Part shown: piece by piece, positions 3,001 through 63,900 of the stretch
Layout of the letters: the number at the start of each line of letters is the position of its first letter
Numbering within the stretch: the first letter of the stretch is position 1
Assembly: GCA_002245135.1 (NCBI GenBank)
Contig: NGBS01000001.1
Span: 248,001-312,000 of the forward strand
DNA from: Proteromonas lacertae
Lineage: Eukaryota
Length of the DNA stretch: 64,000 nucleotides
Reading direction: 5' to 3'
Notes under the pieces: generated by a model
The model's database searches: none
What the model saw: the letters and a program-made list of their open reading frames with translations, nothing else
Told to the model about the DNA's origin: nothing
Made by a program: the position numbers and the translations under genes

Positions 3001-6000
3001 ATTATAGATTACAAGAATTCCATGATGATTTGAAGGAATTATATAAACAAGTTGGTTTAGAAGATAAACCAACAACATTCTTATTCTGTGATACTCAAAT
3101 TAAAGAAGAAGCATTCTTAGAAGATATTAACAACATATTATCTAGTGGAGAAGTACCAAACTTGTATCAAGTGGATGAATTAGGTAGATTATATGATGAT
3201 TTAAGACCAATTGCAAAGAAATTAGGTATTGAACAGACTGGAGATTCATTATGGCAATACTTCATTAATAAAGTTAGAGAGAATATGCATGTTATATTGT
3301 GTATGTCACCAATTGGTTCAAACTTCCGTAATAGATGTCGTATGTATCCTTCCTTAGTCAACTGTACTACAATTGATTGGTTCTTTGAATGGCCAGTAGA
3401 TGCTTTAGAAGAAGTTGCTAGAAAGTTCTTAGAACCAGTTCATTTCACTAGTACAGTACCAGAAATTAGTTTGAAAGTTGCTCGAACATTTGCTCATGTC
3501 CATAAAGCTGTGGTTGAATCATCTGCACAAATGGCAATTGAAATGAAGAGATTCAATTATGTTACACCAACTAATTACTTGGAGTTGGTCAAAGGTTATA
3601 GAGAATTATTAAATGAAAAGCAGAATGAAATTATTGAAGGAAGAGCTAAACTACAAGGTGGCTTACAGAAATTAGAAGATTCTAGATTACAAGTGGAAGT
3701 AATGTCTAAAGAATTAGAAGAAAAGAAGATAATTGTAGCAGAATCACAAAAGAAGTGTGAAGATTTATTGGTTATTATTGTAGGTGAAAAGAGAGCAGCT
3801 GATGAACAAAAGAAACAAGTAGAAGCTGATAGTGAACGTATAGCTGTAGAAGAAAAGGAATGTAAAAGAATTGCTGCTGATGCTGAAGCTGATTTAGCTG
3901 CTGCTATGCCTGCATTGAATGCAGCTATGGAAGAAGTCAAGAAATTAGATAAAAACTCTATTACTGAGGTTAAATCATATACAAAACCACCAGACTTGGT
4001 AGAAAGTGTATTAAGTGCTGTTATGATTTTGTTTAATCAAAAACCTGATTGGTCAACAGCTAAGCGTGAAATGAGTGCACCAGATTTCTTAAAGAAAGTA
4101 TTGGAATATCCAAAAGAAAATGTTACACCATCTATGATTAACAGAGTTAAGAAATATACACAGAGAGAAAATTTCACTAAAGAATGTGTATTGAAGGTAT
4201 CAGTAGCTGCTGCTGCATTATGTGTATGGGTACATGCTATTGTATTGTTCTCTACAATCTATCGTGAAGTGTTACCAAAGAAAGAAGCATTAGAAGCAGC
4301 ACAAGCATCATTGAAAGCTAAACAAGATGCATTGAAAGAAGCACAAGAACAATTAAAGGCAGTTATTGAGAAAGTGGCAATGTTGAATGCACAATATAAT
4401 GCAAGTGTTGATGAAAAGAATAAGTTGAAAGCTGAAGCTGAAGCATTAGAAGCTAGATTAGCAAGAGCTCAAACATTGGTAGAGAACTTATCAGGTGAAA
4501 GAGAACGTTGGGAAGCTTCTATTGCTGCTTATAATGAATCAGAAGTTACTACAGTTGGTGATTGTCTATTAGCTGCTGGTTGTTTATCATATTCTGGTCC
4601 ATTTGATAGTTTATATAGAACTAATTTGATTCGTCGTTGGCTGATTCATATCCGTAGAAATGAAATCCCATCAACTCCAAGTTTTGCATTTGCTAGTTAT
4701 TTAGCAGATCCTACTGATGTAAGAGAGTGGAATATTCAAGGTTTACCAAATGATAACTTCAGTACTGAGAATGGTGTTATAGTTACAAGAGGTAGAAGAT
4801 GGCCACTTATGATTGATCCTCAAGTACAAGCTAATAAGTGGATTAAGAACTTAGAAGGTAGTAAATTAAAGATTGTTGATCCAAAGAAGAAAGATTTCTT
4901 AAGAACTTTAGAAAGTGCAGTTGCTTATGGTATGCCATACTTAATGCAAGATGTTGGTGAAGAATTAGATCCATCTTTAGAATCTGTATTGAATAAAGCT
5001 GTAAAGAAAGTAGGAAATAGAGAAATTATTAAAGTAGGTGATAAAGATGTAGATTTTAATAAAGATTTCAGATTCTATTTAACAACTAAATTATCCAATC
5101 CACATTATACACCAGAAGTATCAACAAAGACAATTATTGTCAACTTTGCTGTGAAAGAAGTTGGTTTGGAACAACAATTATTAGGTTTAGTCGTACAAGC
5201 TGAAGAACCAGCATTAGAAAACCAAAAGAGTGAATTAGTGGTAGCTGTAGCAAGTGGTAAGAAGAAATTAAAAGAATTAGAAGAAACAATTTTAAGATTA
5301 TTATCCAATGTAAAAGGTTCATTATTAGATGATGAAGATGTAGTTCAAACCTTACAATTATCAAAGAATACATCAGAACAAGTACAAGAACAATTAGCCA
5401 TCTCACAAGAAACAGAAAAGAAGATTGATCAAGCAAGAAGTGGTTATACACCAGTATCAACAAGAGCATCTATTTTATTCTTTGTATTGAATGATATGAG
5501 TAGAGTTGATCCTATGTATCAATTCTCATTAGATAGTTACTTCCAGTTGTTCCAACAATCTATTAATAACAGTAGATCTAAATACAATGCAAGAATGAAG
5601 TTAGATGAACGTATTAAAGGTATTAATGAATATCACACATATGCTGTGTATAAGTTTGCTTGTAGAGGTTTGTTTGAGAAACATAAGTTGTTATTCTCAA
5701 TGCAAATGTGTGTGAAGATTATGGAACATGATAAGAAAATACCAATGGATGAGTTTGATTTCTTCTTAAGAGGAGGTTTTGTAATGGATAAAACAGAACA
5801 ACCATCATGTCCTTGTAAAGAATGGATGGATGAACAAACATGGGATAATTTAACAGAATTGAATAAATTACAAGAATTCCAAGGCATTTTAGGTAGTTTT
5901 GAACAGAATAATAAAGAATGGAAGCAATGGTATATGTCTCATACTCCTGAAACTAATCCATTACCTGGTGAACTATCTAATAGTTTAACTCAATTACAAC

Positions 6001-8082: not shown

Positions 8083-10950
8083 ATGTTTTATTTAGATGTA
8101 TTATCCTCAATATTACCATCTTCTACTGAAGTATTTTCCTTGATTATATTTTGTAGACAAAAGAGATAGTTGATAAAAGTTTCAGAGAAGTAGATGTTGT
8201 AGTACAAAATGAAAATGACACTAAGAAGGTAAAAATGTTAAAAATAAATGAGATAAAAGAAAAAAGAGTGTTAGAATTCCTAGAGAAAAACACATTATCT
8301 TCAGATTGGTGTTTATCCTTTATTGTTCCTTCTAAAGTATGTCAGTTGAGCAATGCAAATGAATATATGTTATTGGAAAGAGAATATTATTCCAGAGATG
8401 TGGAACAGCTGATAGAAATGAATTCGTTATCAAAAAGTGATATGTGTGATGTGATGTGTTTATTGTGTAATATGCTAATGATATTAAATGAATATGGTAT
8501 AGTGGTTCATAATTTGAAGAGTTCAAATGTGATATACGAAACAGATGATGATAATATAAAGTTATGTGATTTATGGTTAAATACTTTAAGAAAAGAAGAC
8601 GATTTGAGAATATATGATATATGCTTTACAAGCCCAGAAGAGTTAGAAGGTTTAGAATATAATGATGGAAGTGTAATTTGGTCAATTGGATGTATTTTAT
8701 ATGATATGACAAACAAGAAATTACCATTTTCAGAAGATGATAATATTTTAAAAACTCTAAGAAATATCTTCAAATGTAAATACAGTTTTGATGTAGAAGG
8801 TGATGATTCAATAAAAGAACTGATAGAAAGAGTATTAAAAGTGAGAAACGAAGATAGAATGAGTTTAAAAGAATTGAGAGAAGAAATGATGAAAATGAAT
8901 GAGTTATTGAAAGATTGTGATAATAATCTAATGATATGTAAAGAAAGAAATGAAATAATATTGGCTAATGATTATGTAGTAATTGTTCTTCCAATATTAT
9001 ATCCATATGATTATTATCTTGAAAGTAATAAATGGAAAAGTATAAATAATATTATGATAATATTTAAATAGTAATTCGAGATGTTTTGATTAAATCGTAC
9101 AATAAAAAGCCAAATGAGAAAATACTGTCAATGTTATTGATGATGAAATTGTATAAAGAAAGAAATAATGAAGGTGATGATTGTATATATTACAGGTTTA
9201 GTGAAAAATATTCCATCAAAGATTATATGGAATTTCAAATATTACACAAATGTACAGAAGATAAACAATGTATCTTAGCTAAAATGATATATTATAATAA
9301 TTGTAAGAAGAATAAAATATGTTATTTAGATGAAATGGTGTTTAATATTGATGAATATGGTGATAATAATGGAATAATTAGAATAGATCCAGATTGTTTT
9401 TGCTTATGTGAAGAAGGGCTGAATTATTTATTCAAGATATTAAAATTAATCAATCCAAGTAGACTCAAATTTGGTATAATTGTAATATTTTATTATTATA
9501 TAGTCTATATTCCTATTCCGAATAAGCTTCAGTTATTATTTGCATCATACTTTACACAATTAACAAGTTTACGAGAATTAAGTTTATCATGTTGCTGTCT
9601 GACTTCTGATTTTTTTAAGTCGTTTATAAAATCAATTCCATTTATGAAATTAAAGTATTTAAATGTTCAATGTATTTATTATTATCTTAATGTTATTATT
9701 TCATAGCTAATCCTGTTGGACCAGAATGCTTTAAGTTATTACTTCCATATGTGCATTTATTGATCAATAATGATAATGAATTGGACTTATGTGGAATGAG
9801 TTTAAATGATGAATCAATGATGTTTTTATCAGAAGAATTATACAAATATCCTAATCTAAATAGAATAGATATTACACAAAACTATGATATTCGTTCTGTT
9901 GGATTAAAAGCCTTATTCTCAAAATTTCCTATTTCATCAATAGAATTTGATTATAATAAAAGAATAAAGGAATTACTGGTTGATAAAGATATTCCAGAAT
10001 TAATAAAATATATAAAATTTAGACATAATAATAAATTAAAATTATGTGGTTTAGAAATCGATGATTATACAGTAAAAAAAGTCCTTTCTATTAGGTCAAA
10101 TGAATTGAAAAATATAAATGAGTTAGATTTGAGTAGTATGATTAGATATTTAATATATAATTTAGATAACAAGCTATCATTTGAAAGTGTAGAAACACTG
10201 ATTAACAATTTATCTTCATTTACAAATCTTAAAGAACTTCACTTAAATGGAAATCTGCTAGGAGATTTGGGAATGAAATTATTCTCTCCACATTTAAATT
10301 TACTGGAATATGCAGATGATTGGTATTTTTTTAATACAATAGATTGTAGAAGTATAGTAAATATTATGTAGCTTAATAGAAATGGGATTATCGTCAGTTG
10401 GATTGAGATATTTGGTAGATGGTTTAAAGAATGTTCATGAAAACATCAAACTAGATATAAGTGATAATAGTATTGATGGAAATGGAATAGAATATTTGAT
10501 GAATTATATGAAAGTTAATAATAATATTAAAAAGTTGTTGATTAATGGTATTCTCATTTATTATAATTCTATTGTTTAATAGAAAATCCAATTGGTAATT
10601 CTGGATTTATTCTGCTGTTAAAAAATATTGATGTGCTAATGGATGAAAATAAACAAGAAATGAATTTGAGTAATATTTCAATAGATGATGAAAGTGTTAA
10701 ATTATTAGCAAGCAAAATTGCTTCGATTAAATATTGTGAAAAAATAAATCTAAATAGAAATAATATAGGAATGAAAGGATTAAAATCAATTTGTAAAAAG
10801 TCTTTAGAACAAGATAATTATCCATTTATAGAAATGAGTTGTTCATCATGGACAAAAGAAGAATCGAAATATTATTCAGAATATTGTGATAAAAAGAATG
10901 ACAGAGAATATATTTATAGTGATGATTTTCTATTTCCATACTATACGTAA
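8083..10950 (+). CDS. Pseudokinase + leucine-rich-repeat protein (multi-exon)
   Basis: ATG at 8083; GT-AG introns join ORFs 8235-10950. Degenerate kinase motifs (HNLKSSNV, KLCDLW, SPEE, IWSIGCILY) are followed by RI-like LRRs (LKELHLNGNLLGDLG). Paralog at 60931. Confidence 0.8.
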
Positions 10951-11169
10951 AGTAAATACTTTATAGGATATATATGCTAGAATCTGAAAAGGAATCTAAT
11001 AGTTGACTTTAGCTTAATTAATGATGTTATTATTATATAAAATGTTATGTTTGCTTTAATGAATGATTGTGTTATTATTTTTAAATTATGAAACGGTCAT
11101 AAATAAAACGAATATATTTCTATTAATTAAATATTTAAAGGACAAATAGAAGAATTATAAGTTTATAAA

Positions 11170-13559
11170 ATGGAAACAGGTTCAAAAATAATCAATTCCT
11201 TTATTGCAAAATTCAAAGATTCTGATACTCTCAATCTGGACAGTATAGTTTAAATATGTTACTATAATTATAGAATTTGATGCCAATCGAGAAAATTATC
11301 AGATATTTCTGCAATGGTTATTCCAAAAATGCACTCAACAATTTAATTCTCTAAAATTGGCTCTTTATAGTATGTATATATGTAATAATACTATAGTGAT
11401 GTATGATGAAGCAAATGACATACTGAAAGAGTGTTTAAATCTTCCAAAATGTTCAAATTTTAGAAATCTGATTAGTTTTGAATATACATACATATACACC
11501 AAAACCTCATTGGAATTATTCAATGGAATAATAGAGTATTGTATAAATCTGAGAGATTTAAAACTACATGGAAAAGATGATAATAAAAAGATAGATTATT
11601 CAATTCCTACCCTATTTAATCCAAAATTTAGTCATTTGGATAGTTTATCCTATTCAATTGACTATGCTTCATCATTTGTAAATGTAATAAAGAGTTATTT
11701 ATTAAGTGATGCTAGTAAAACATTAACATTTCTTAATATCTTAAGTGGTTCAAATGCAACAAAAGTAGAAGAAATAGCAAAAGGTTTATTAGAAGGAAAA
11801 TGTGAGAATTTATCAATCCTTCGTATAGGTGGAATGAAAAATCCAGAAGAGGTATATAATATAATAGCAAAAGCATTGATGACAAAGAAATATAACAAAT
11901 TAATTGAAATAACACTAAGTGGATCTTGTATTTCTGCATTAAGTTTACATAACGTATTAGAACCATTAATATTAGGATATTGCCCTTTATTAGAGACAAT
12001 GGATTATGGTGGCTTTTCTGAGAATAATTGCTATAATGAATTTATTCCATATTTAGAATCTGATAGATGTAAAAATTTACATACAATTTATGTTAATGGT
12101 GAATGTGCTTATAGTAATTGTATTTGTTTATCATTGTTACATTCATTATTAAGTGGTAAATTAACCAATTTAAAGAGTTTAATATTTTATGGTTGTTCAT
12201 TTGGTGAGAGAGGTTTGAGTGACTTATGGGATGCATGTATGAATTCTTTATGTCCAAATTTAGAAACATTAAAGTTTCAAAGTATAATTCATTTATTTGT
12301 AACAATAAATAGTGATGCATTTATGTTCACCTGATACTTGGAATCCATTTATTACAGTTTTAAAGAATAATAAACTTCCCAATTTTAAACATTTTATTAT
12401 TTTTGGTATTTATATATATTATTTAATTATGTTTATCATGTAGTATGTCATATTTCAATGTTATTATCAAATGTTTTTAGTGAAATATTAAATAATATGA
12501 ATAATATCAAGTTAGAATTATTAGAATTTAAATGTATAATTATATATATATATATATGTATGTATATATATATGATTAGCTTGTACTTTCGAAGATCGTG
12601 AAGCTCAATATATTGGAAATTCATTCGAAACTTCATCATTAACAAGCATTAATACATTGAACTTGTATGGGTGTCATTTGTCACCAAATGGATCTTATAG
12701 AATATTAAAATCATTCTTATCGTTTCATTATAATAAGTTGAAAGTATTAAATTTCAGTGGTAATAATATTGGTGCAAAAGGATGGACTACCTTCTTTTAT
12801 TGTCTTCAGAATAACAGAATTCCTCAATTAGAAGAATTGAATATTGCATGTTGTGATTTATATGAAAATTACTTTTCATCTATTTTATCATATGATATAA
12901 AATTGCAATGCAATAATCTAAAGGCAATTGTGTTTATGGGAAATCCATTAAAATCACTTGGTATTCAATGGTTAAGTGCAGCTATAAGATCTCATTCATT
13001 CCCTAATCTTGAGATTATCAATTTACAGGATTGTTCAATTGCCACGTTAGAAGCATTGATATTGTTTAATTCACTTTCTAGTGAATATGTGAGTAAATTG
13101 AAGTTTCTTAATATTTCTAGTATATAACTGTATATACATGTAATTAATAGATAATCCAATATCTTCAATTGGAATAGTTGAATTGGGATATGCACTAATC
13201 AGAGGTAATTTAAGTTTTCTAGAATCAATTGAAATTGCTTATGTAACAGCTGATTGGGCAGGATTATATCAATTTCTAGAGATATTAGCAACTCACAATT
13301 GCTATAATTTGAATAACTTGAATATTATAGAGAGTATATATACATTATATAATGATTATATATATTGATAGATATATCATCAAAGAATTTTAATATGACA
13401 AAAATTGAAAAGATGAAATTGTATTATGAACAAATAACTAATTCAAGGGTTTTTCCATTCTTAGAATGTGATGAAGATGAAGAAGAAGAAGAAGATGATG
13501 ATGATGATGAAGAAAATGAAGAAATAGAAAAAGAAGATAGTAATGATGATGAATTATAA
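11170..13559 (+). CDS. RI-like leucine-rich-repeat protein with acidic C-terminal tail (multi-exon)
   Basis: ATG at 11170; short GT-AG introns join ORFs in frame; repeats such as LKVLNFSGNNIGAKG and LEIINLQDCSI; ends in a D/E run. Confidence 0.75.
12541..12572. repeat. (TA)n microsatellite inside an intron
   Basis: tatatatata...tgtatatatata within a GT-AG intron of the LRR gene. Confidence 0.7.
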
Positions 13560-16131: not shown

Positions 16132-17401
16132 ATGTTATCTGTTGTATCAATTATTATTTTATTATAATAGGGAAGAAGATTATTCTCAAGTAATGTAGCA
16201 AATGCTATAAAAACACCACTTTATGCACTTCATCAAGAAATGAAGGGTAAGATGGTTGAATTCGCTGGATATGCATTACCTGAACAATATGAAGGATTAG
16301 GAATTACAAAAGAACATATGGCTGTTCGTGCACCAAATGGAGCTGGTATTTTCGATGTGTCACATATGGGTCAAATTAGATGGCATGGTAAAGACAGATA
16401 TGAATTTATTGAATCACTTGTAGTTGGTGATATTAGAAGTTTAGGTGAAGGAGAAGCAAAATTGAGTGTAATTACCAACGAACAAGGTGGTATCATTGAT
16501 GATACTGTTATTACTAATGCTGGTGATTATATCTACGAAGTTATCAATGGTGCTACTAAATTCGGTGATATGAAACACTTTGACAAACACATTGAAGAAT
16601 TCAGAAAGAAAGGTAAAGATGTCTCCTATGAATATGTCCAAGATGAAGCTTTAATAGCATTACAAGGAAAAGGAGCTTATAAACTTTTACAACCATTGTT
16701 AGATTCAGTCGATTTATCTAAATTATCATTCATGCATGGTTTAGATACTAAAGTATGTAATGTCCCATGCAGAGTCACAAGATGTGGTTATACTGGTGAA
16801 GATGGTTTCGAAATCTCAATCCCAGAGAAAGAGTCTATTGGCATTACCAAGAAATTATTTGATGCTGGAGCTGTACCATGTGGTTTAGGTTGTAGAGATA
16901 GTTTGAGATTGGAAGCTGGATTGTGTTTATATGGAAGTGATATGGACGACACTATAGATCCAATGAGTGCTGGTTTGTGGTGGTGTTTCAGTAAGAACAG
17001 AAGAGATAAAGGTGGATTTGTTGGATATGAAAATGTAATGAGAAGAGTATATTATAATTATTTATTTTATCTAATAGTCTAAGGCTTGGACTGAAAAGAG
17101 AGTAGGTATGGGATTTGCTAAAGCTTGTCCAATTCCAAGACATGGATCAATTGTATATAACACTGATGGTAGTAAGATTGGTCATATTACAAGTGGTACA
17201 TTCAGTCCAGTGTATTTATTAATTGTTATTTTTTTTATTATTTTATGAAATAGGTTACGTAAGCCAGTGACAATGGGATATGTTGCTAAAGGTTATCATA
17301 AGAATGGAACCAATGTTTTAATTGAAGTCAGAGGAAAGAAATACCCAGCCACAGTTCAAAAAGTTCCATTTGTACCAACTACATATTATAGAGCCAATTA
17401 A
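16132..17401 (+). CDS. GCVT: Glycine cleavage system T protein (aminomethyltransferase) with mitochondrial-type presequence
   Basis: MLSVGRRLFSS N-terminus after splicing; FDVSHMGQ, RCGYTGEDGFE, GLGCRDSLRLEAGLCLYG; C-terminus PFVPTTYYRAN. Confidence 0.96.
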
Positions 17402-41040: not shown

Positions 41041-44000
41041 ATGTCGTTATACAAATGTTTATCTTTATTACTAATCCTTTCTTTAATTAAAGGAGAGGAT
41101 TTGAAAATCGGTTTTATGTTATTCCCAGCACAGAGTAAATCTGAATTAAGTAGATTAGTTCTTAACAAATATCTTAATGAGTGGAAGACTGATAATCCTG
41201 ATATGACATTTACAAATGTTGATGATAGTACAAATGTATTTAGTATGGCTGATAACCCAGCTACTTTAAAAAGGTACATAGAGACAAACGGAGCTAAAAT
41301 TGTATTTGGATTTTGTTATGGAATTAATAAAATTGACGGACTTCCATTAGATGAATATATGAGAAAGCATAATGCTTATATTTTTTGTGCAACTACTCAG
41401 GATAATGCTTGCACTACAAATATAATAAATATTCAAGATGGCGGAATATATTACAGTAGAGCTTTGTTATATATTGCAAGAAAATGGAAGAAATTTGTAA
41501 TTGTTGCTCAAGCAGGTGTAAAGGATATAATAAAATATCAATTAAATGGTATATGTTCAACAGAGAAATGTACAATAATCAAAGAAGTGGATACGACTGC
41601 TGGTGGTAATTTACAAACTGAAATAAGTGGAATTAGTGATGATAATTTTGCAATTTTAATAAATACAAGTCCTGATAAGAATACTGATATTTATGCTGCT
41701 GTTAAGGCTTTAAAGACTGCTTTTAAAAATGTAGAAGCATATGGATTTGGTAATATTGAATTAACTGATGTTTCTACATTTGCAGATGCTGCTGATACTC
41801 AAATGATTTCACTTATTAGTAATTCTTATAAAAGTGATAAGAAAACAAAAATGGATGAAATTATGACAGAAGTTGCTACTGGTTCACAAAAACCATTTCA
41901 ATATCTTTATTTGATGTATATATTATAATCATTGTTTATTTATTTTTATATAGATACACATTGGTTGATAGTTTCTTCAGTATAGCTTCTAAATTTCAAA
42001 CATTTGATGTTGATGTGATATTGTATAATTTAAAATTATATTCTTTTGAATCTCCAATATCACACTCATTTCTAGAAAGTGGTAATGCAATAAGAAATTC
42101 GCAATATTTATTCCAATTAGACACAGATCCAAGTGATAATGTTTGCTTAAAGAATTTCACTGATTTTGATGATTTTTCTTATATTTCTCCTTGGGACAGA
42201 ATTGGATATTTACCAAAAGGAACATGTGATTGGAAATTGTCTCCAACAAATGGTACTGCAACAGGACAATATGCTGTTATTATCTTCATAGTTCCATTTA
42301 GTGATAAGTATGGTGGTAATTATGAACAAGTCGGTATTGACTATTCACGAATAGCTAATAGTTATTTACATGAACTAAATAGAAATGGAGGTGTTATTGG
42401 TTATACAATTTTCAGTCATTATATTGATAGTTTTGATACTTATGAAAATATTAAGAAAAGTATTAAAGATGTTAAAGATAAGTATAAAGTTGTTGCTTTT
42501 TTTATTGATATACCAGAAGAAATACATGAACAATTACATGAAGAATTCGAAGATGAAGAGTTATTATGGTTTAATTTACACAATGTTGCAGGTTTTGAAT
42601 GTCATAAATATCATTACAATTTAGGTTTTTCATCTGAACAAGTAAGACAAATCCATTATTTAGCATTTGATTTAGTATCAGCAGCTGGTAGAACAGCTAC
42701 ATTTCTCATTTATTCAAAGAATCCAAGAGATCAATTGCAGATGGAAATGTATAGATATTCATTGGAAACACAAGGATCTTATTACAATTTCTCATATTAT
42801 TTAGATCCCAAAATTGAAGCAAACATGACTAAAGCACCTGATGGTTCTGTATCTGTTCTTTCTCTCAGTTATGAAGATACAATAAAGTTTTTAGAATATT
42901 TGAAAACTGCTACTGCATTTCAAACAAACAATTTACAATTTTTCTTTGTTAATACATACGAGCCAGTTTTCTTGAAATATAAAGATGAAGCTTTCTTTAA
43001 GAATGTTCATTTACTTACACAATTTGCACCAACCAAAGAATCACCAGTATTGAATAAAATGAAAGAAGAAATAATGAATTATTATAAATTGGATAGTAGT
43101 GATGAGAATAATGTATATGGTTATATGGGTTTACTTCATGTAGGTTTAGAAATATGGAATACAGTATATTAATATATTATTATTACTATTATTATAGACT
43201 GCTGTTTTGACAGGATCAATAGAATCATCAGTATTAAATAGTAATATATATAAAAGATATAATGATTTTGTTAATGGTCCATATTCTATAGATGTAAGTG
43301 GATATGGAATGGTAAATGTAGTTATAGAGAATTATGATTCTACTACAGCTAATAATTTTGTTGAAGAATTTTCATCTGATTATGCCATTTTACCTGAAAC
43401 ATTTGCTAATACTACCAAAATATGTGATTTAACTATAACCGATGGAGATCCAATACAAACAATCAAATTCTTTGACGTATTTGCAGTATATTCATTTCAT
43501 GATCCAAGATCAAGATATTATATCAATCAATTGAGATTAATTATATCATATATTAACCAAAAAGGTGGTTTTGATAGTTACAGATTAAAATTGGACTATG
43601 TAGGTTCTCCTGCTTTTGTAATACCAAGATTACTTCAAGGAAAGATTAATAGTGGAATTTCGTTATTTGTTGGTACAGATGATATGGATATATTAGATCA
43701 AATAACACCAATAATTGAAAGAAATAAAGTATTTTTAATTTTACCTCATTATGCTAGAGGTAATAAGTGTTATCAACATATAATACATACTGGTATGTTA
43801 TCTGTTCAAATATTCCCAAGAATTCTTCAAGTTAGTGGAGTTCAAGGAGATGAATTAATTATATTGAGTAATAGTACTACTTTAGAGAAAGATATGACAA
43901 AGAATCTACAAAAAGAGGCAAATACATATTATGGAAAAGAGCTGCAATTATTTGAGACAAAATCAAATGAAACATTGAATCAAGCAGTACATAGAGCAAT

Positions 44001-47000
44001 AATTGAATTAAATACAACTTCATGTACTAAGTCTTGTACTATAATTGCTCTTCGTTCAGATGTAGCTGTTCAAGCTGTAAATGAACTTGATCAGGAAATG
44101 GCTAGTCGTTTTCACATTATGATGATATCTCCAAATCTAAAGAAAATAAATGACATATATGATAGAATGTATGGTGCAAATATGGTTGTAGATTCTTATG
44201 TGTATAATGTAGTAAATGCAGAATCGAATCATTTCATGAAATCAATTGAACAGAATTTTGGACCTAAATATATTATTAATGGTGAAACAATGGCAATGTA
44301 TGAAGGATTTATGTTATTAGAAAAAGCTATATCAATAGCAGGATCCAAATGATAATGAAGAAATACAAAGAGCTTTATTAGGATTAGAAATAGATACTCC
44401 ATCTGGTAGTATTACATTAAAACCAAATATGCATGTTGAAAGACAGTCATTTATTAGTGGAATTGGTAATGGAAAACCTCCTGGAATGCCTGATATACCA
44501 ATTCCTCCAGATGGTGCTGGAATGCCTCCTGGAATGATTCCTCCTGGAGGTGGTGGTGGTGGTGGTGGAGCTATGCCACCTGGATTCGGTGAAAGTACTA
44601 ATGAATTAAATCCACAGGTTTTAACAGCAGTTTCTAATAGTATTTATCCGATGTTAAGTAGTGGTGATTTCTATTGTGATTGGTCAGATGAAACTATACT
44701 AGGAAATGGTACTTATCCGGCTATAAAAATATTATTATTGTTTGAAGGTGGTGATTCAGCTAAATCACTTGGTACCATTGGATATTTGAGAGAAATGATT
44801 GAACAAATAAACATATTGGAAAGTCTTCATTATTCTCCAGTATTATCAGCTGAAAAATGTCCAACAACTACAGCAGAAGCTGCTTCTACTTTAATTGATT
44901 ATAATTATGATAATTATCATCTTGTTATATGTGATTGTCCAATGGATAATCTAGAATTAATGGATTCTACATTAGAGACAATATCAGTAGTTATATTTTA
45001 TATTAGACCATCATTAAGAAGTAAATGCTCAGAATCTATGTATATTTTTTAATTTATTATTTATTAATATAGATGGTATATGGATGTTACACCAATTCAG
45101 CATCTAAAACCAACTCTGTTTTGGGCATTTGAAGAATTTGGGTCAAGAATATCTATAGTTTATTCTGATGCATTCAATGTAAAAAATTACTTATCATTGT
45201 TAACCACTTTTTGTAAAGAACTTAATGCTGAATGTGATGCTGTGGCTATGCCTGCTGATCCAGAAGCATATAGAGCTTTAATAGTAAAGCAATTGCAGTT
45301 TGTTTCATTGTCTGGTTTTATTATTGATCTATTACCAGAAGGATTGTCAAAGAAGTATCATATTGAGTATAATAAACTTCTTCCTAATGCAGAAGTGAAG
45401 ATATTAACATTCTTTTCATATACAGTAGAATCAACAGATAATAATCTAATGAATAATCATTACTTTATTACTTCAAGTTTTCCAGCAGCAGTAACAGATA
45501 TGCAGTATATGAAGAATTCTGTTCCATATATGTCAATGGCATTCTTTACACCATCAAATGTATTATTAGCTGCTGATGCATTAAGAGGAATATTTTACAT
45601 TTACCAAACATATACAAATCCAACAATAGATGATTTTAAAAAGTCATTGATTGGTGTAGAATTTACTAATTTTCAAGGTTCAATTACATTTGATAGTAGT
45701 CATTATTTAACAAGACCATTATATGCTGTGTTGTATAAAGCATCATTCTTTCTCCCATCATTTGAACTTACCCAATTAGGTCAAAACTGGCCTCCCAATG
45801 CTTTCTATACTACTTTCAATAGTGTAATCTATGAAGTATGTAATATAAAAGAATCTACCACAACTAAAAAGCTGGATTATTATCCTATTGGTGTTATTCA
45901 ATCGTTTACTGGTGATTTGATGGAATATAGTAGAGGATTAGCTGCTGTTATAGCTGGAGAATGCGAAGAGATTAATAGCAGAGGTGGAATAAATGGTAAA
46001 TTCTTAACTCCTATTATATATAATGATGATAGTAATGCTAAAACAGTACAAGCAGTTCTAAAGAAAATGAAGCAGTTGGGAGTTACTTATGTGTTTGGTA
46101 TGACTGATACAACCATAAGAAAATATGCAATTCCTGTAGCTAAGCAGTTAGGAATGGTGCTATATTATCCAGCAAATGTTGAAGGACATGAATGTGAACA
46201 AAATGTATTTGCTACTGGTATTGTAACAAATGATCTACTTAATTTACCATATTATATTAAAACAAAATTTACTCCAAAAGTATATTTAGTCTTAATGAAT
46301 AGTGATAAAGCTAAAGCAGAATTAGGAATAATTCAAGAAAGATTAGAAGGTTTTGGTATTGCAATGGTTGGTAAATATTTTGTTTATACTGATAATACAG
46401 ATTTTGTAAGAGTATCTCGAATTATAGTAAATACTTTAAACACTGGAGGTGTTATATTATCAATGCTAAGAGGTAAATTATCTATGCAATTATTCCAAGC
46501 ATGTTATGGTATATTAAAATCAACAATGACTATCATATCTGAAGGTATTAGTGAAGATGATTTGAATCAAGGATATGGTTATACAGCTGAAAATCATTAT
46601 ATTTGGATTGCCTATTCAGAACCTTCACCGTCATCAAAATATTATCAATATTTCCAACAATTAAGATCAAAATTGTCATATAAAAAATCATTTGGAGAAT
46701 TACATGCCAATACATTCAATGCATTCCAATTATGGTACAATGCAGCAAAGAAAGCAGGTACATTTGATTCTTTCCCAGTTATTAAAGCTGGTGAAAATAT
46801 GGAATTTGATAGTATATCAGGATCATTGATAATGGATTCAAACCATTATTTAAGAGGAAGAGGTTCGTTGTATCAAGTAAAATATGATGCAGCAAGTGGT
46901 AGATATAAGACAGTCAACCAATTCCCTGACATTATCATGAATTATAAAACATATGTATATAATATGTTTGATGAAACTGGAGTTAAATATTGTGATTGGA

Positions 47001-50000
47001 GTTTAGGTGGTTATTTTGAACCTGCTTATGTAAAAGTTGGAATATTTGGTGATATAACTGGAACAAATGCTGATTATGAATTAATTATTGTAATGGCCGC
47101 TCTTTCCTCATTACAAACAATCAATGAAGAAGGCGGTTTATTAAATGGCATCTATGTTATACCTGTAATTAGAAATACAGCAACTGATAGATTATTACCT
47201 CAAGTAATAGATGAATTCTTAAGAGATGAGAAGCTTGTGGCAATTGTGGGAGGAAAATCTGAACAATCAAGAACAATAGTAAGAGATAAAATAGCTGCTG
47301 CTAATAGTGATGTGTTATTATATTATCCAGCCAAATCATTAGGCAATGAATGCAATTCAAATGTAGTTCAAGTTGGATCTACACTTAATCAATTTATTGA
47401 TCCAGTTTTTAATTTCTTACTGTCAGTTAATGCTCAGTATAAACTTGTATTATTAGAGAGTGAAGATGTACAGTTCAGAATAATAGCTGATATGATAGAA
47501 ACTCAATACTCAAAGTTTATAACAAATATTTTAAGAATCAGAGTTACTGCAGTTGGATTACATTCGGTAGATGTAGCAAAACAAATATTCGATTATTTAC
47601 CTGAAAAATCTGCTATTATTTCTTGTTTATCATCAACTGATCATTTAGAATTATTAGACCAAATTAACAATATTCTCAGAATTGATTTGAAGAAGTACTA
47701 TATGTATTGTGTAATTCCAGATACAAAAGATGTAGTTACTAATCCAGCATTTGCTTATAATTATTTCTATTCAACATATGATATGTCTTCTACAAGTGAA
47801 AAACATCAACAAATGATGGATCAATGGATTAGACATTCATTTACCACATTTTTATCTGAAGATGGATATAATGCTTATTTAGCTGTAAATCTATGGAAAG
47901 CAGCTGTTATTAAGAGTGGTACTACAGATCCAAAAGCTGTAAAATTGGCAATGCAAAAAGTATCATTTGAATCACCAGGTGGTACTATATCTGTTGATAC
48001 AACATTCTATACAAGTCATCATATCAAAATTGGGTATATGGATGAAAATGGCAATTTTGTTTTAGGATATAAACCAGAATCAGTTTATTCACCAGAACCA
48101 TTTAATTGGTATATTAATCCAGGTTATACATGTGATGTAAGACAGCCTAATCCAGTAGTTTCACAACCATATGGTTATATTTTATTCAGTAGTAGTGGTT
48201 TTGGTGATAATTCATATGATAATATGAGATTACCAATTATTATCTCAGCTGCAGTACAAAGAATAAATTCTGAAGGAGGTGTATTAGGAAAACATGTTGT
48301 AGTAAACTTCTTTGATGATCAAGGTGATTTTGATCATTGTTCTGCAAGATTAAAATCTGCTTATGATGAAATAAAGAAAGATTTGTTATTAGTGTTATAT
48401 GGAAATGATATTAGATGTTTAAATGATATTAAATCTGATACTATTATTCAAGGAATTCCAATTGTTTTTTATTCTGCAGTTGCTGGTGAAACATGTGATG
48501 CTAATATCATATATTTTGATGTAGAACCAAGTTTTTATGAAAGAGCATATAATCTCTTCTTAACTAGAAATTATAAGAAGTATGCCATTGTAGCTGGTTT
48601 AGATGATAGATATAGTCATGCTGTCTATGCAGAAATATATTTATCTCATTTATTCCAACAAGTTAAATATATAGGAAATTTAACAAGTAGTAATGAAGAA
48701 GTGATTGTAAATAGTACAATGGAATATCTTGGAAGTGATGATGGTAATGTTATTTTGTATTTTGGAGTTAGTAGTTTGTTGCATCCATTTATTGATGCTT
48801 TGAGAAAGAATAGTAATTACAGTAGTAATAGTGTTTCAATTATACAATTTGATGGTTTAGAAATAGAAGGAGATTATGATTATGAGATGGTTGGTACTTA
48901 TTTCAGTGAAACTGATAATCCTATGAATAAAGAATTAGTAGCAAGTACATTGAATTCTATTCAAGCAAAACCAACTTACAGAATTTCAAAGATATTTTCA
49001 TTTTTCGCATTTTATATGCAAACCGTTAACGTGAATGGTGCAACTGATTATACTAATTTATTCAATAATATGAGAGGTCAAGAGTTTTTCTCAACTGAAG
49101 GATTCCTCAAAATATCAAATTCAAATTATGGTATGTTTTATTTACGATTTGCTACTCATTCAAAGAGTGGTACTAAAATAACATACACATCAACAGATTT
49201 ATTGAATCCAAATCCATATAAATATTTATCAAATGAAGGAACATATTATGAATGTATCATATCAAAGAATACTATATCCAATAAATTACCTAAGAGTAAA
49301 TATACTATATTAATTGTATCTCATCTTCAGACATATCGAACTGATGCATTAAGTGTGATGGAAGGCGCTTTATTAGCTCAACAAGAAATCAATTTAAATG
49401 GAGGAACATTAAATTATTATATTGCCTTGGATTTCTATAATTTAGATGATGAAAATTCATATAATCAGTTTGTTAGTGCCATTAATATGGATTCAAATGT
49501 TTATATTGTTGGTTTTACATTAGTCCCTGCAATGAAAGGAATTCTTTCATTTTTCAATTCTACTGATTTGATGTTTTTATCAACATGGACACTTACTGAA
49601 GCTTATTGTGTTACAAATATAATAGCAACAGAAACAACAGGACCACAATTAGCTTACTTTTTATCAGGTGTGTTATTACAGAAAACTCCAGTTGCTCATT
49701 TAGTTTATAGTAAAGTAGTTACTTCCATATCATATTTGATCACAACGAAGTATATTATTCCAACTTTAGAGTATTATGGTATAACAATAGAATCGGCAAC
49801 TGCTGTTGATCCTTCAATAACTGATTTAACTCAGTTTTGGTCTGATAGTAAAATGGTTGTTAGTAGAAATGGATGTATTATTTCCACAGTAGGACATAAT
49901 TTTGATGTTTTATTATTAAAGACATTCAAATTACAAGGATTTAATGTTGATGATATTTATATATTATTTACTTCTCCGCCCAATGAATTCTTTGTTGATG

Positions 50001-52630
50001 AGACTTTAACTAGTTATTTAATTGGTCATTATGCATCAGGATCATTCCTTGATGGTATTGATAAAACAGATAATTTAGATATATCAATAGCAGCTGATGC
50101 TAAAGAGTTTATTGATAGTATAAGGAACAACTTTGGTAGTCAAATACCAGCAAATCCAACAAGTGAAGCGACATATACATCTGTGTATTATATTCATAAT
50201 GCAATTACTTATACAAGATCAACAGATGTTAAACAGAATGTAAATGCATTATCTGAAGTAGTTGTTCAAAGTCCAGCTGGTAAAATTGAATTAGATAAAA
50301 GTAACTCATTAGCAAGAAGATTATTTGTTATTAAATTCACCGCTAGTGGTAGAAGTTTGTATTATAGTCCAAATGGTGTCAGTCATTCGATGTTTTATAC
50401 TGATTATTACAATTTAACAGGTGTAGAAATATGTTCATTCAATCCAGTAACTACAAATGGTAAAGTAATCAAGAATATTGTAGTGATTCATGAATATGAT
50501 AGTAGCACAATGAAAGAAGAAACAAATATAGCTAGAACAATCGATTTATTTGTAACAAAAACAGAAACTGATTTTAAATTGAATGGATATACATTGAATT
50601 TTTACAATGTTTATGGTGATAAAGATACAATTGAAGAAAAAATATCAAAAGCAATAGAAGAGTATAATCCAATAGCATTATTAGGTGGAAGAAAATCATT
50701 TTTATTACCAATAATGTCAAAATTAACACAGAATACTGCAACTCCATACTTTTATTATGGTATTAATGATTTATCTGTATGTAAAAGAAATTTCTTTTAT
50801 TTCCAAAGTGATTATTATCAAAGGTTTGATATAGCTAATCAATATATTATGAATTTGACATTTACTGATTCTGTGGTATTATATGATGAAGATTCACAGT
50901 ATATTTATATTTATGTATTTATTATATTATTATAATAGTGATTCATTTAACCACTTTAAGAAATTATTTGACAAGAACAAAAGTCCATTATTAGCAACAA
51001 TCAATGTAACTACAGAGGAAGGTATGAATTCGGTTGTAACAATCTTACCAACATTATTAACTACAAAATTAAGTCATATTGCTGTTTATGTTTTACTACA
51101 AGGTGAACATGATAAACATTTAAGAGATTTCCTTATAAAGAATAAACAATTATTTGATAATAGCAATTATATATTTGTATTTAAAGAGTGTAATCCATTC
51201 TATTGGACAGGAGAACAATATATCTTTTTCAATGGACATATGTGTATTGACACATTATCAGCTAATGAAGACAGTACAGAAAGTACTGTATTTAGAACAG
51301 AATCATATAATCTATTTGGTAATAACAGAGGTGATTCAGAAATCAATTCATTAGTTTATTCATCTCTATTCTTGTTAGGAAATGCTATAAATAGTGTTAT
51401 GGATGAATATACTCACAACGAATTCCCTAATGCATATTATATAAATCAAGCATTGAAAGAATATAGTATGGCAATTCCAAATGGTTTAGGTAAGATAGCA
51501 AATAGTGGTATGTTAATAACAACTTATTTCGTAAAGAGTATAAGTCAATATGGTTTTGACAGTGTAGAATATCCAACAAATGGGGTTATCTATATTAATC
51601 CACAAGTTGATTGTAATTTAGGAAGATTGGTAGAGATTTATACTTATCCAACTTCACTAGTTGCTAGTTATTTAGTATATGTGGTTGTAGTTCTTTATTT
51701 AATGTCAGTTTTCTTCTTCTATACTAAGAATAGACATAATCCAATTGTTAGAAATACAAGTTATTTATTCAGTGTAATTGCTATGTTTGCATTATTCTTA
51801 TTATCAACTTGTAGTATGATTGTTTTAATATATCCAAAGAATGATTTCACTTGCGCTATAAGAAAGTGGCTTATTTTAATTAGTTTGGATTTATTACTTT
51901 CAACATTCGTTATGAAAGTGTGGAGAATTCATAAATTGATGAATAACAAACAATTGAACAAAATGAGAATTAGTGATGGTAGATTATTAATGGTAATTGG
52001 TGCTGTCATAGCTGTTCAAATAGTTTATTTATTGATTTGGACTTTAGCAGATCCTGTCCATCACCAAACAGAACTTAATACCAAATTGAGTGACTTTATA
52101 ACTGATGTTTATGTTAGAAATTGTGAAAATGAGCAATACTTCTTGTATATATATTATTTTATTTATTTTCATATAGAATTCCGCAAGCAATTGCAATACT
52201 TGCTTTAGCTGCATGGGGTGTACAAGTAGCATTCAAGATCAGAACTGTTGTTGCTGAATTTAATGAATCTTTAAGTTTAATATCAACAATTGTTATTATT
52301 TGTATATGGAGTGTTGTAGTTGTTTTACTTGATTATGTTTTGAAAGATGAGCCAACTGCTTTAGCATTTATTAGAACGATGGGAATTAATGTTGGTGTAT
52401 TTGTAGTTGCATTCCTTCAATTTGGTAATAAAGTATCTTTATTGTATTGTGCAAACTTTGGTCCTGATGATGATTCTTCTTCTAGTTCAGAAGGAGAAGG
52501 AAATGATAATAATACACCAGAAACTACTGAAACTACAGAACTACCAGCAGGTGTTGTTAGTCCCACAACCTTCCCTGATACTGTAAATCATGTTGAAGAA
52601 ACACCAATCGAAGTTATAAAACAAAATTAA
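41041..52630 (+). CDS. Giant receptor B: signal peptide, 9 tandem UrtA/AmiC-like binding domains, class C-like (GABA-B type) 7TM; one +1 frameshift at ~44345-44349
   Basis: Signal peptide MSLYKCLSLLLILSLIKG; repeats such as IGVIQSFTG...EINSRGGING...LYYPANVEGHECEQNVFATG...LWYNAAKKAGTFD; 7TM with RHNPIVRNTS, CAIRKW, KVWRIHKL, FKIRTVVAEFNES; five GT-AG introns. Confidence 0.85.
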
Positions 52631-60930: not shown

Positions 60931-63900
60931 ATGTTTTGCTTAAAATCTTTCGTAGATGATGTGATATCTTCAACATTACCATCTGATTATCTAGTATTTT
61001 AACAATAAATGATTTTTTAGGTAAAAGAAAGGGTAAAAAAGAGTGAATTTGAGATAGATATTGTAATTCAACATGCTCCTGACATTAAAATGTTGAAAAT
61101 TATTAATGTTATTGGAGTAAAAGAAAAGAATGTATTGAAGCTCAGTGAGAATAACTCCATATTGTTAGAATGTTGTTTACCCTTTGTTTATCCATTTAAA
61201 GCATTTCAAATTGATAGTGAGAGTGGATTTATGATTATATCAAGAGATTATTATGCACGAGACTTAGAAGAGGTAATTCAAAGTAAATCCTTGTCAAGTA
61301 GTAATATTAGATGTGTGATAAGCGGAATATGTGATATTTTAATAATATTAAATGAATATGGTGTAGTAGTCGGTAGCTTAAAGTGTTCAAATGTCATATA
61401 TGAAGAAGATGAAAATGATATAAAGTTATGTGATTTAAACCTTAATACGCTAAGAAGAGAAGATGATATAAGAATTTATGATGTGAATTTTAAAAGCCCA
61501 GAAGAGTTGAATGGATTGGAATGTAATGAGAGAAATGTGATTTGGTCAATTGGGTGTATATTATATGAAATGATTTGTAAGAAATTACCATTTAATGAAG
61601 ATAATAATGTATTTAAAACCATCAATAATATTCTGAGATGTAAATACTGTTTAGATATGAAATTTTATGATGAATCGATGAAAGGAATGATAGAAAAAAT
61701 GTTGAAAGTGAAGAGTGAAGATAGAATGAGTTTAAAAGAGTTGAAGAAAGAAATGATAAAAGTGAGTGAAATATTGAGAGACAGTGATAATAATTTAATG
61801 ATATATAATGAAAGGAAAAAAATGTTATATATTAGTGATGATAACGTTGTTTTGCTTCCAATAATATATCCACCACAATACTATTCTGGAAGTAGTATAT
61901 GGAAAAGTATAATATTGATAAATATAATCAAATAGAAATTCGAGATATATTGATAAAATACTACAATAAAAAACTTAATGAAAGAATACTATCAATACTA
62001 TTGATGATGAAGTTATTCAGAAAAGAAAGGTCAACAAGAAAGAAGCTGAAATATCAATTTCATCACAAGTGTGAAGAAAGAAAAGAAGAATGTTATTTAG
62101 ATGAAATGCTTTTTAATATAACTGCTTATCCTGCAGATAAAGAAATGATGATAAAAATTGAATCAAACTGCATTTGTGTATGTGAAGAAGGAATGAAGTA
62201 TCTTTTTAAAGTATTGAAACTTATCAATCCATCGAAACTGATATTCTGTATATTTACTAATCATTTTTGGTTGTTTAGATTGTTATAATATTCCATTCAA
62301 TAACCAATCGTTATTTGGATCATTATTTTCTCAGCTATCTAATCTACAACAACTAGAATTATCATTTTGTAATCTTACTTCTTCTTTCATTGAATCGTTT
62401 ATTCAATCAATTCCTCACATGAAATTAAAATGTCTAACTCTTCCATGTATCTGATATTCATTTTTAATTATTTTTAAATAGTAAAATTGATTGGTCAAAG
62501 AGGATTGAAAATGTTATTTCCATATTTACATCTATTAATCAACAAAAATAATGAATTGGATTTTAGAGAAATGAATTTAAATGATGAATTGATAATATTA
62601 TTATCAAAAGAATTATACAAATATTCAAGTCTTAAGAAAATTGATATTAGAAATAATATTTATGTTAATTCAAAGGGATTAAAAGCTTTATTCTCCAAAT
62701 TTCCAATTTCTAAAATAGCATTTGATTTTAAAGGAAAAGAAGATATTTTGATTGACAAAGACATTCCAGAAATAATAGAATTTGTTAAAAATCATCATAA
62801 TGGTGTATATATTGGAGGTTTGGAAATTAATGACGAATTCTTCAAATCATTAGTATATTTGAGATTAAATGAATTATGGATGATAGCACAGCTAGATTTA
62901 AGCAGTATCTTTTGATAGCTTTCCATTATTTAGATAATAAACTGACATATACAAGTGTTGAAACTTTGATTAGAAATTTATCTTCATTTTCAAGTCTTGA
63001 AAAACTTCATTTAAATGGAAATGAAATAGGAGATGAAGGACTGAGAGTATTATCTCCACATTTACATTTATTGATAGATGATTTTAAAAGTATAAATTGT
63101 TCAAGTATAATGAATATGGTTGTTATTGAATAGGTATGGGATTATCTTCAACTGGATTAAAATATTTGATTAATGGTTTAAAAAATATAGATAAAAAGAT
63201 TAAACTCAATATAAGTAATAATAGTATAGACACAGATGGAATAGAGTGTTTGATGAATTTTGTGAAAAAAAATGATGTGATTGAAAACTTATTTATAATA
63301 GATAATCCTATAGGAAATGGTGGGTTTAAATTAATTCTGAATAGTCTGGAAATGTTAATGTATGCATATCCGCCTGAGATAAACTTGAGAAACATATCCA
63401 TAGATGATGAGAGTGCATCATTATTAGCTGATAGAATACCTTCAATTGAAAATTGTGTAAAGATAAATCTGAATGGTAATAATATCAGAATGAAAGGATT
63501 AAAATCAGTTTGTACAAAATCATCAGATTATAAAGACAGTCCATTTATACAAGCAAAATGTTCAACATGGACAAATGAAGAATTGGTGTATTATTTGAAT
63601 TATTGCATTAAAAAGAAAAGGCATAAATATGATTATAGAATATATGACTTATCGAGTATAGAATACTAATTTCTAATTAAATAGATATGAATTTGAATGA
63701 TTCTCATATTTCCTTAATAAAACAGATAAAATATCAACACCTTGATTTATGCAATAATAAAATCACTTCAAAAGGATTAAAACAATTAACAGAATTTTTA
63801 CCAAAGTATACAAGCCATATTTCAATAGTTGACAATCCAATTGGAGATGAAAAGGAATAGAAATAATTTCGAAACATTTTGATATATTTGTTATTTATTA

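Follow-up and report, generated by a model that had tools for sequence, protein, structure and literature searches.

How does a binding site far out on a receptor chain reach the membrane when nine or ten flytrap domains are stacked above it? Class C receptors are understood to carry one flytrap per chain and to be activated by a rearranged dimer. A gene of Proteromonas lacertae raises the question; it lies at 41041–52630 of a 64,000-nt stretch of contig NGBS01000001.1 (positions 248,001–312,000, forward strand), hereafter the window, to which all coordinates refer. An initial annotation had described it as a signal peptide, nine tandem binding domains of bacterial type and a seven-transmembrane (7TM) domain in one chain. 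We find that the predicted product is a variant of the class C-type G-protein-coupled receptors (GPCRs): most of the class C features tested are present, the exceptions being a single ANF-type flytrap and the proline of transmembrane segment 7 (TM7). On its function, the reading that holds about half of our confidence is that the gene encodes one orphan class C-type surface receptor, its frameshift being likely an assembly error, that would detect a ligand other than urea, with modules 5 and 6 binding and module 9 relaying.

The gene, its modules and its membrane domain

The window consists of AT-rich, eukaryotic DNA (24–33% GC per 2 kb), and the gene runs from ATG to stop over the span first proposed. 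All five introns have the form GTATAT...TAG, with a length of 32–40 nt and an AT content of 89–94%. When the single break in the frame is read through with X, the protein has 3,803 amino acids (aa), arranged as a hydrophobic leader that by eye agrees with the proposed signal peptide, nine type I solute-binding modules of ~380 aa, a 7tm_3 domain and an acidic tail (Table 1).

The nine repeats had been recognized correctly, and all nine terminal cysteines stand where they had been placed. The modules are 363–417 aa long and their pairwise identity is only ~8–24%; plain self-BLAST or self-phmmer of the protein sees no internal repeat, and leave-one-out profiles are weak for module 1 (E 0.014) and module 9 (E 0.1) before outside homologues are added. 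When 117 homologous modules of other proteins were made into a profile, with no window sequence included, it matched nine out of nine modules at 27–242 bits; the reversed protein reached 4.2 bits at most, and five shuffles no more than 0.7 bits.

These modules are of the UrtA/AmiC type rather than animal flytraps, as the initial annotation had suspected. The HMMER scan that had been set beforehand yielded both type I binding-protein and 7tm_3 matches: modules 5–8 pass the Peripla_BP_5 cut-off, modules 2, 3 and 9 have sub-threshold Pfam matches only, and ANF_receptor has no match on any window piece in the Pfam scan. TIGR03407 (UrtA) matches five modules weakly, the best being module 5 with 124.7 bits, below the curated cut-off of 492.75. 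A UrtA-type profile gives 168–170 bits for modules 5 and 6 and 14–81 bits for five others, two being undetected. Modules 5 and 6 align over their full length with cyanobacterial UrtA structures, including the terminal Cys-Asp-Trp. What had been taken for a cysteine-containing linker is UrtA's own terminal Cys-Asp-Trp, at the C-terminus of the domain, and hence each repeat is, as judged by alignment, a complete UrtA domain to which the next one is joined directly.

Structure prediction, also proposed at the outset, points in the same direction. An AlphaFold2 model of modules 5–6 (35 sequences, 764 residues) has a pLDDT of 90.7 and a pTM of 0.90, which argues for a confidently placed interface between both modules. 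In a fold search with this model the top six matches are urea-binding proteins with TM scores of 0.82–0.84 to the target (0.84 for 7s6e and 8hic), followed by AmiC, and the GABA-B and mGluR flytraps rank far below them. The UrtA fold is taken from the model for modules 5–6 and from the profile for the other modules. The closest UrtA structures (7s6e, 7s6f and 8hic) carry titles that name complexes with urea and calcium. The Pro/Gly-rich insert of module 3 is GC-rich, extracellular and possibly a flexible hinge.

The proposed 7TM domain is likewise present, with seven hydrophobic segments and a 7tm_3 score of 90.1 bits on exon 5 (cut-off 33.5, E 2e-25); exon 6 alone gives 25.8 bits, below the cut-off. 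GABA-B subunits are its best Protein Data Bank (PDB) matches both by sequence (GABA-B2, E 9e-13) and by fold. The cysteine pair at the top of TM3 and in extracellular loop 2 (ECL2) lines up in all 13 receptor sequences. The class C motifs that we tested follow the text passages of PMC3727952 (TM3 basic pair, TM6 acidic residue, TM7 PK); the first is retained as Lys-x-x-Arg on the cytoplasmic side of TM3 and the second as the glutamate of Phe-Asn-Glu before TM6. The signature of adhesion GPCRs (class B2), 7tm_2 with GAIN/GPS, has no Pfam match at E up to 1. A 13-row tree of the 7TM domain is mostly without resolution.

A frameshift in module 3 had been overlooked. The spliced frame is interrupted once only, by a stop at 44350–44352 that follows a run of three A. 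The module profile leaves one frame at model position 322 and re-enters the next frame at 322; this continuity across the break indicates a single-base insertion within a conserved stretch. An intron was rejected as the cause: the 18 frame-restoring GT-AG pairs enclose 58–145 nt at 70–73% AT, and none is like the five true introns. If the frameshift were genuine, the gene would be a recent pseudogene, or would encode a secreted fragment of 1,079 aa (~2.8 modules), and there would be no receptor. We regard this as distinctly unlikely. The assembled DNA does contain the stop, no intron around it is plausible, an adjacent paralogue is broken several times, and pseudogenes are common in expanded receptor families. 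However, the 11.4 kb of coding sequence have no other lesion, and the five introns and the 7TM domain are intact; the break sits in a homopolymer between two well-conserved flanks, and a second signal peptide is not visible downstream of it. The 5' half of the paralogue contains at least five frame breaks (~36255 to 33050) that by eye are not explained by introns, several of them in homopolymers, and there are no breaks in its 6.5-kb 3' exon or in a 7.9-kb dynein frame of the window. Because the paralogue breaks cluster as local consensus errors would, unlike even decay, the frameshift of the main gene is quite probably an artefact of the assembly or consensus.

Relatives and the urea pocket

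A profile of modules 5–8 run against 1.84 billion representatives gave 2,787 matches, and the best 150 of these, which are rich in long multi-module proteins, were examined; a word search with the top match added four, and 155 proteins were examined in all. Among them are 33 proteins of AT-biased composition with 2–9 modules (the AT family), many apparently cut at introns; the 11 that were looked up are Logan-only. Sequence of the 7TM domain is included in 13 of the 33, and an independent Pfam match to 7tm_3 was obtained for 6 of 18 scanned (one below cut-off). One member, P0176, has an unbroken reading frame of 3,886 aa with a leader, nine modules and a 7TM domain. In register tests, module i of the window gene pairs with module i of P0176 (p=0.0002), and the same holds for P0019 (p=0.0002) and P0010 (p=0.0014), hence the array is old and position-specific. 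A recent tandem amplification is ruled out by this register and by the low identity between modules.

A second, conserved group includes five receptors with a 7TM domain: P0094 (KAJ3101170.1) from the chytrid Phlyctochytrium bullatum with 2 modules, P0024 with 3 modules (N-terminally partial), and P0002, P0173 and P0174 with ~9–10 modules (Logan, ENA and JGI sources). To it also belong two fragments and the dinoflagellate proteins P0175 (Pfiesteria) and P0052 (Yihiella), both without 7tm_3. The eukaryotic status of P0094, P0175 and P0052 follows from the name; for the others it is deduced from 7tm_3 or the tandem layout.

According to the text passages of PMC10392092, changing Trp120, Ser122, Gln144, Tyr190 or Asn246 of UrtA strongly reduces or abolishes urea binding (W120A abolishes it), and Tyr141, Glu146 and Ser274 are lesser urea residues. 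Each of the nine window modules has at most one of the five essential residues and at most two of all eight, both in a 338-row alignment and pairwise against the UrtA of Synechococcus (P0034). The equivalents of Trp120 and Asn246 are lost in all nine modules, and those of Ser122, Gln144 and Tyr190 are kept at most singly. Because no module keeps more than one of the five, a receptor made from this gene is probably not a urea sensor. The proposal of a multi-site nutrient sensor for urea or amides, with which the initial annotation had credited the gene, is therefore one that we consider highly improbable. It can appeal to the nearest solved structures, which bind urea and amides, to the conserved relatives, which retain the urea site, and to module 5, which keeps the equivalents of Tyr141 and Glu146 and differs only conservatively at Ser122 and Gln144. 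It is opposed by the residue losses just listed and by the TIGR03407 score (125 versus a cut-off of 493).

In the conserved set, 24 of 35 modules carry the five essential urea residues and also the full eight, and pocket columns are kept at 0.81 versus 0.44 overall (348 pairs). The membrane-proximal module is degenerate in five out of five conserved 7TM receptors (0–2 of the 5 urea residues) and a module upstream of it has 4–5 of 5. The conserved relatives with intact sites are likely candidates for the role of urea receptor in microbial eukaryotes, and a series of 2, 3 and ~9–10 modules, always with a degenerate last module, makes the relay question testable. In the AT family none of 110 modules has all five residues and 105 of 110 have both the internal and the C-terminal cysteine, as do nine out of nine window modules; this two-cysteine pattern is rare in prokaryote-labelled domains (7 of 114 in the library, 2 of 70 from GTDB). 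AT-family pairs of 30–40% identity, the largest bin with 113 pairs, keep pocket columns at 0.27 versus 0.34 overall, and the three smaller bins give 0.41 versus 0.44, 0.59 versus 0.53 and 0.49 versus 0.62.

If the gene does encode a receptor for a ligand other than urea, the two cysteines would form one disulfide per module, and neighbouring modules would be packed in a fixed orientation, as predicted at the 5–6 junction. The stapled modules would form a long stalk which, in a straight shape, would measure tens of nanometres. Modules 5 and 6, in the middle and best kept, would shut around a small ligand of a new kind, the others acting mainly as spacers, and the movement would be passed via packed neighbours and the non-binding module 9 to the 7TM domain. 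GABA-B2, the flytrap of which is non-binding and serves its dimer, is a model for such a relay.

Alternatively, all nine modules could be non-binding and make up a rod, stapled by disulfides, that contacts bacteria, the mucus of a host or other cells and transmits force or clustering to the 7TM domain. We see such a contact or adhesion receptor as a rather doubtful possibility. The AT family shows no special conservation of its pocket columns but does conserve the cysteines and the module order, and the confident packing between modules 5 and 6, the large and divergent set of paralogues and 19 N-glycosylation sequons counted in the ectodomain would all suit a rod. Yet modules 5 and 6 are far nearer to UrtA than the others by the UrtA-type profile, which suggests extra constraint, and Pfam scans give no GAIN/GPS or known adhesion domain.

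Several observations weigh against the ligand-sensing reading that we prefer. A stalk with a purely structural role would explain the lost conservation of the pocket equally well. At ~20% identity the pocket columns are hard to align, multiple and pairwise alignments differ on individual residues, and the pairs compared for pocket conservation are not mutually independent. The pTM of 0.90 covers one junction of eight and was judged from interface confidence, and the second half of module 9 is poorly modelled (pLDDT <50 in 151 of 399 residues). The TM7 'PK' motif of class C receptors is not kept, as the lysine is present and the proline replaced; the proline is also replaced in the close relatives P0019 and P0176 and is present in P0002, P0094 and P0173. 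Ligand, G-protein coupling, dimer and transcript are all putative.

The wider search gave a number of side observations. In P0175 (EukProt), pairs of one intact and one degenerate UrtA-type module alternate with ephrin-receptor-like cysteine repeats (PF07699); its C-terminal end is multi-pass membrane, not listed as 7tm_3, and the module pair is thus reused on another receptor type. P0052 (EukProt) has one UrtA-type module, the pocket of which is altered, and a hydrophobic tail at its C-terminus, and is possibly GPI-anchored. Seven apparently prokaryotic proteins of 1,450–1,600 aa (P0020, P0021, P0023, P0036, P0046, P0051 and P0129) have a UrtA domain at both ends, and the three that were scanned have HEAT repeats or NTPase-related matches between the domains. 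A GTDB scan with P0032 found 77 loci, and the 70 matching frames examined are short, each with a single module in 327–593 aa between stops. Word-based homologue searches returned 1 match among 2,225 candidates for module 5 and none among 5,965 longer proteins for module 6, the method being too insensitive, and in a metagenome scan with P0024 none of 55 stretches matched. The sole metagenome match to the DNA pattern of a module junction (L078, 3667–3737) lies inside an unrelated prokaryotic peptide-transporter operon and was taken as chance.

Origin of the module

Trees were made from 76 of the 338 extracted domains and later from 47 rows, after distant outgroups and compositionally odd and redundant rows had been dropped, and of the window modules only 5 and 6 were placed. 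In the 47-row mixture-model tree, one branch of 25 rows (97/94) unites all 19 rows from the eukaryote side with six labelled as prokaryotic, among them Synechococcus and Alkalinema. The window modules cluster in it with the AT family, with support of 96/90. Of the six rows labelled as prokaryotic, three (P0090, P0093 and P0112) have a label without an organism name and could be eukaryotic. The two-cysteine tail is present in Synechococcus UrtA and in the cluster with the Alkalinema protein.

These trees support a bacterial, cyanobacterial-type ancestry of the module. The per-module phylogeny that had been suggested thus groups modules 5 and 6 with cyanobacterial UrtA, without resolving eukaryote monophyly inside that branch. 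The earlier idea that a bacterial binding protein was acquired and fused to a 7TM domain holds as far as the bacterial ancestry goes; the event is not private to the lineage, as a chytrid protein, other 7TM receptors and dinoflagellate proteins share the module.

The gene would then descend from a eukaryotic receptor family based on a cyanobacterial-type UrtA, the conserved members of which likely sense urea, and would itself belong to a side branch whose members multiplied and diverged in AT-rich protists. More fully, a urea-binding protein of cyanobacterial type would have been taken up by eukaryotes and made into a family of class C GPCRs with 1–8 intact urea sites stacked above a non-binding adaptor module, some with ~4,000 residues; in an offshoot of AT-rich flagellates, to which the window gene belongs, a nine-module stalk would have become fixed, the urea site erased and the receptors radiated into a large set of new sensors. 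We would rate this scenario as evenly poised between right and wrong. The offshoot would be a case of a receptor re-tooled into a large surface family.

The trees also contain signals that run counter to this scenario. Branch lengths of the window modules are very high (2.7 and 3.5), and eukaryote monophyly, at 86 in a quick tree, is not resolved in the mixture-model tree. With distant outgroups and a simpler model (the 76-row tree), the window family fell at the base, outside the group of conserved eukaryotes and cyanobacteria, and testing does not reject such a placement (p-AU 0.19). No significant collinearity was seen with P0174, the nine-module receptor of the conserved group (p=0.21), and hence the long arrays of the AT family and of the conserved group may have grown separately.

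Neighbouring genes and known systems

The paralogue lies 4.5 kb from the main gene and points away from it, and the two 7TM domains are only 18.5% identical. Its 5' half is richer in introns, and both giant genes begin with Met-Ser-Leu-Tyr. The axonemal dynein heavy chain of the window indicates that the organism is likely flagellated; in Blastocystis nearly all flagellar genes are lost, according to the text passages of PMC12129017. Going by the GC content and the size of its introns, the organism may be a flagellate of the Opalinata kind. Two similar-looking genes on the plus strand (8157–13127 and 61021–63669) by eye have a kinase-like frame and, after it, frames resembling leucine-rich repeats, and 16171–17082 (plus strand) encodes a glycine cleavage T protein (GCV_T match) with a short leader that resembles an organelle-targeting sequence.

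Table 1 Features of the receptor gene and its neighbourhood in window coordinates.
Feature	Position	Strand	Details
Whole gene	41041..52630	+	ATG 41041, stop 52628-52630, six exons
Exons	41041-41915, 41954-43163, 43198-45039, 45073-50898, 50939-52144, 52177-52630	+	
Intron 1	41916..41953	+	38 nt
Intron 2	43164..43197	+	34 nt
Intron 3	45040..45072	+	33 nt
Intron 4	50899..50938	+	40 nt
Intron 5	52145..52176	+	32 nt
Signal peptide-like N-terminus	41041..41109	+	Hydrophobic core, ~18-23 aa; assigned by eye
Module 1	41110..42236	+	Terminal Cys 42225; most diverged; split by intron 1; window-free profile 27 bits; first-exon part without Pfam/NCBIfam match
Module 2	42237..43434	+	Terminal Cys 43423; split by intron 2; window-free profile 116 bits; Peripla_BP_6 E 6e-6, below cut-off
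Module 3	43435..44686	+	Terminal Cys 44675; holds frameshift and Pro/Gly-rich insert; window-free profile 144 bits; TIGR03407 E 1e-5
+1 frameshift in module 3	44347..44352	+	Run of three A, then TGA
Pro/Gly-rich low-complexity insert in module 3	44475..44600 (approximate)	+	~40 aa; not in other eight modules
Module 4	44687..45850	+	Terminal Cys 45839; split by intron 3; window-free profile 107 bits; larger exon part without Pfam/NCBIfam match
Module 5	45851..47002	+	Terminal Cys 46991; among two best kept; Peripla_BP_5 129 bits; TIGR03407 125 bits; PDB 7s6e E 3e-27
Module 6	47003..48142	+	Terminal Cys 48131; other well-kept module; Peripla_BP_5 114 bits; PDB 7s6e E 3e-22
Module 7	48143..49264	+	Terminal Cys 49253; Peripla_BP_5 44 bits, above cut-off; window-free profile 159 bits
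Module 8	49265..50443	+	Terminal Cys 50432; Peripla_BP_5 49 bits, above cut-off; window-free profile 158 bits
Module 9, membrane-adjacent	50444..51623	+	Terminal Cys 51612; split by intron 4; window-free profile 92 bits; enters TM1 without cysteine-rich domain
7tm_3 domain, GABA-B2-like	51645..52420 (3' end of hydrophobic segments approximate)	+	TM3 and ECL2 cysteines 51852, 52122
Cytoplasmic tail, acidic, Ser/Thr-rich	52450..52630	+	~58 aa, ends at stop
Paralogue, same layout (signal peptide, ~nine modules, 7tm_3)	ATG 36495 to ~24400 (3' end approximate)	-	Module matches along length; 7tm_3 60.2 bits
Axonemal dynein heavy chain, DNAH2/I1-beta type	1-7919	+	7.9 kb, no intron or break

The initial annotation knew of no characterized receptor with this architecture, and our literature search agrees: no published account of such a receptor was found in a search on Peripla_BP_5 with and without 7tm_3, tandem flytraps, chytrids, urea and Opalinata that left most subscription literature uncovered. 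We know of no class C receptor for urea, and none surfaced in the literature searched. The text passages of PMC13466386, PMC4758236, PMC9960496 and bioRxiv 10.1101/2024.02.22.581678 mention no such receptor. Urea is an important marine nitrogen source (PMC10392092).

Non-animal class C GPCRs of anaerobic gut fungi, chytrids, Dictyostelium and diatoms combine 7tm_3 with prokaryote-like solute-binding domains and have undergone lineage expansions; the ectodomains described in the text passages of these papers are type II SBP, BMP, LysR_substrate, OpuAC, SBP_bac_1, PBP_like_2, ANF and pectin-lyase, with up to 1,600 aa (PMC5168858, PMC3251606, PMC3727952). Unlike the receptors in those passages, the window gene has UrtA/Peripla_BP_5 modules in a long tandem array, although the figures and supplements could show tandem cases. 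The EhVFT protein of Entamoeba is also a protist surface flytrap with bacterial affinities, but it is a single GPI-anchored domain with an amino-acid-binding motif and no 7TM domain (PMC12965686).

Compared with the cyanobacterial UrtA proteins of 7s6e, 7s6f and 8hic, modules 5 and 6 share the full-length alignment, the cysteine after a YEGQE-type motif, the terminal Cys-Asp-Trp and the fold. However, the window modules are ~25% identical to them, have lost the urea pocket, occur ninefold and are fused to a 7TM domain instead of serving an ABC transporter. Tandem flytraps on one membrane sensor are known from Bordetella BvgS and from trypanosomatid receptor adenylyl cyclases, which have two such domains and a kinase or cyclase output, not a 7TM domain. 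GABA-B resembles the window gene in its 7tm_3 domain, in a type I flytrap that enters TM1 without the nine-cysteine domain, in the TM3/ECL2 cysteines, in the Lys-x-x-Arg of TM3 and in the glutamate of TM6. It differs in having one flytrap per chain instead of nine, of the ANF_receptor instead of the UrtA type, and the window gene, unlike GABA-B, lacks the TM7 proline and has a short, acidic tail. The undescribed conserved relatives (P0094, P0024, P0002, P0173 and P0174) have UrtA-type modules and the same tail-to-strand junction followed by 7tm_3, but keep the urea site in most modules, whereas the window gene has it in none.

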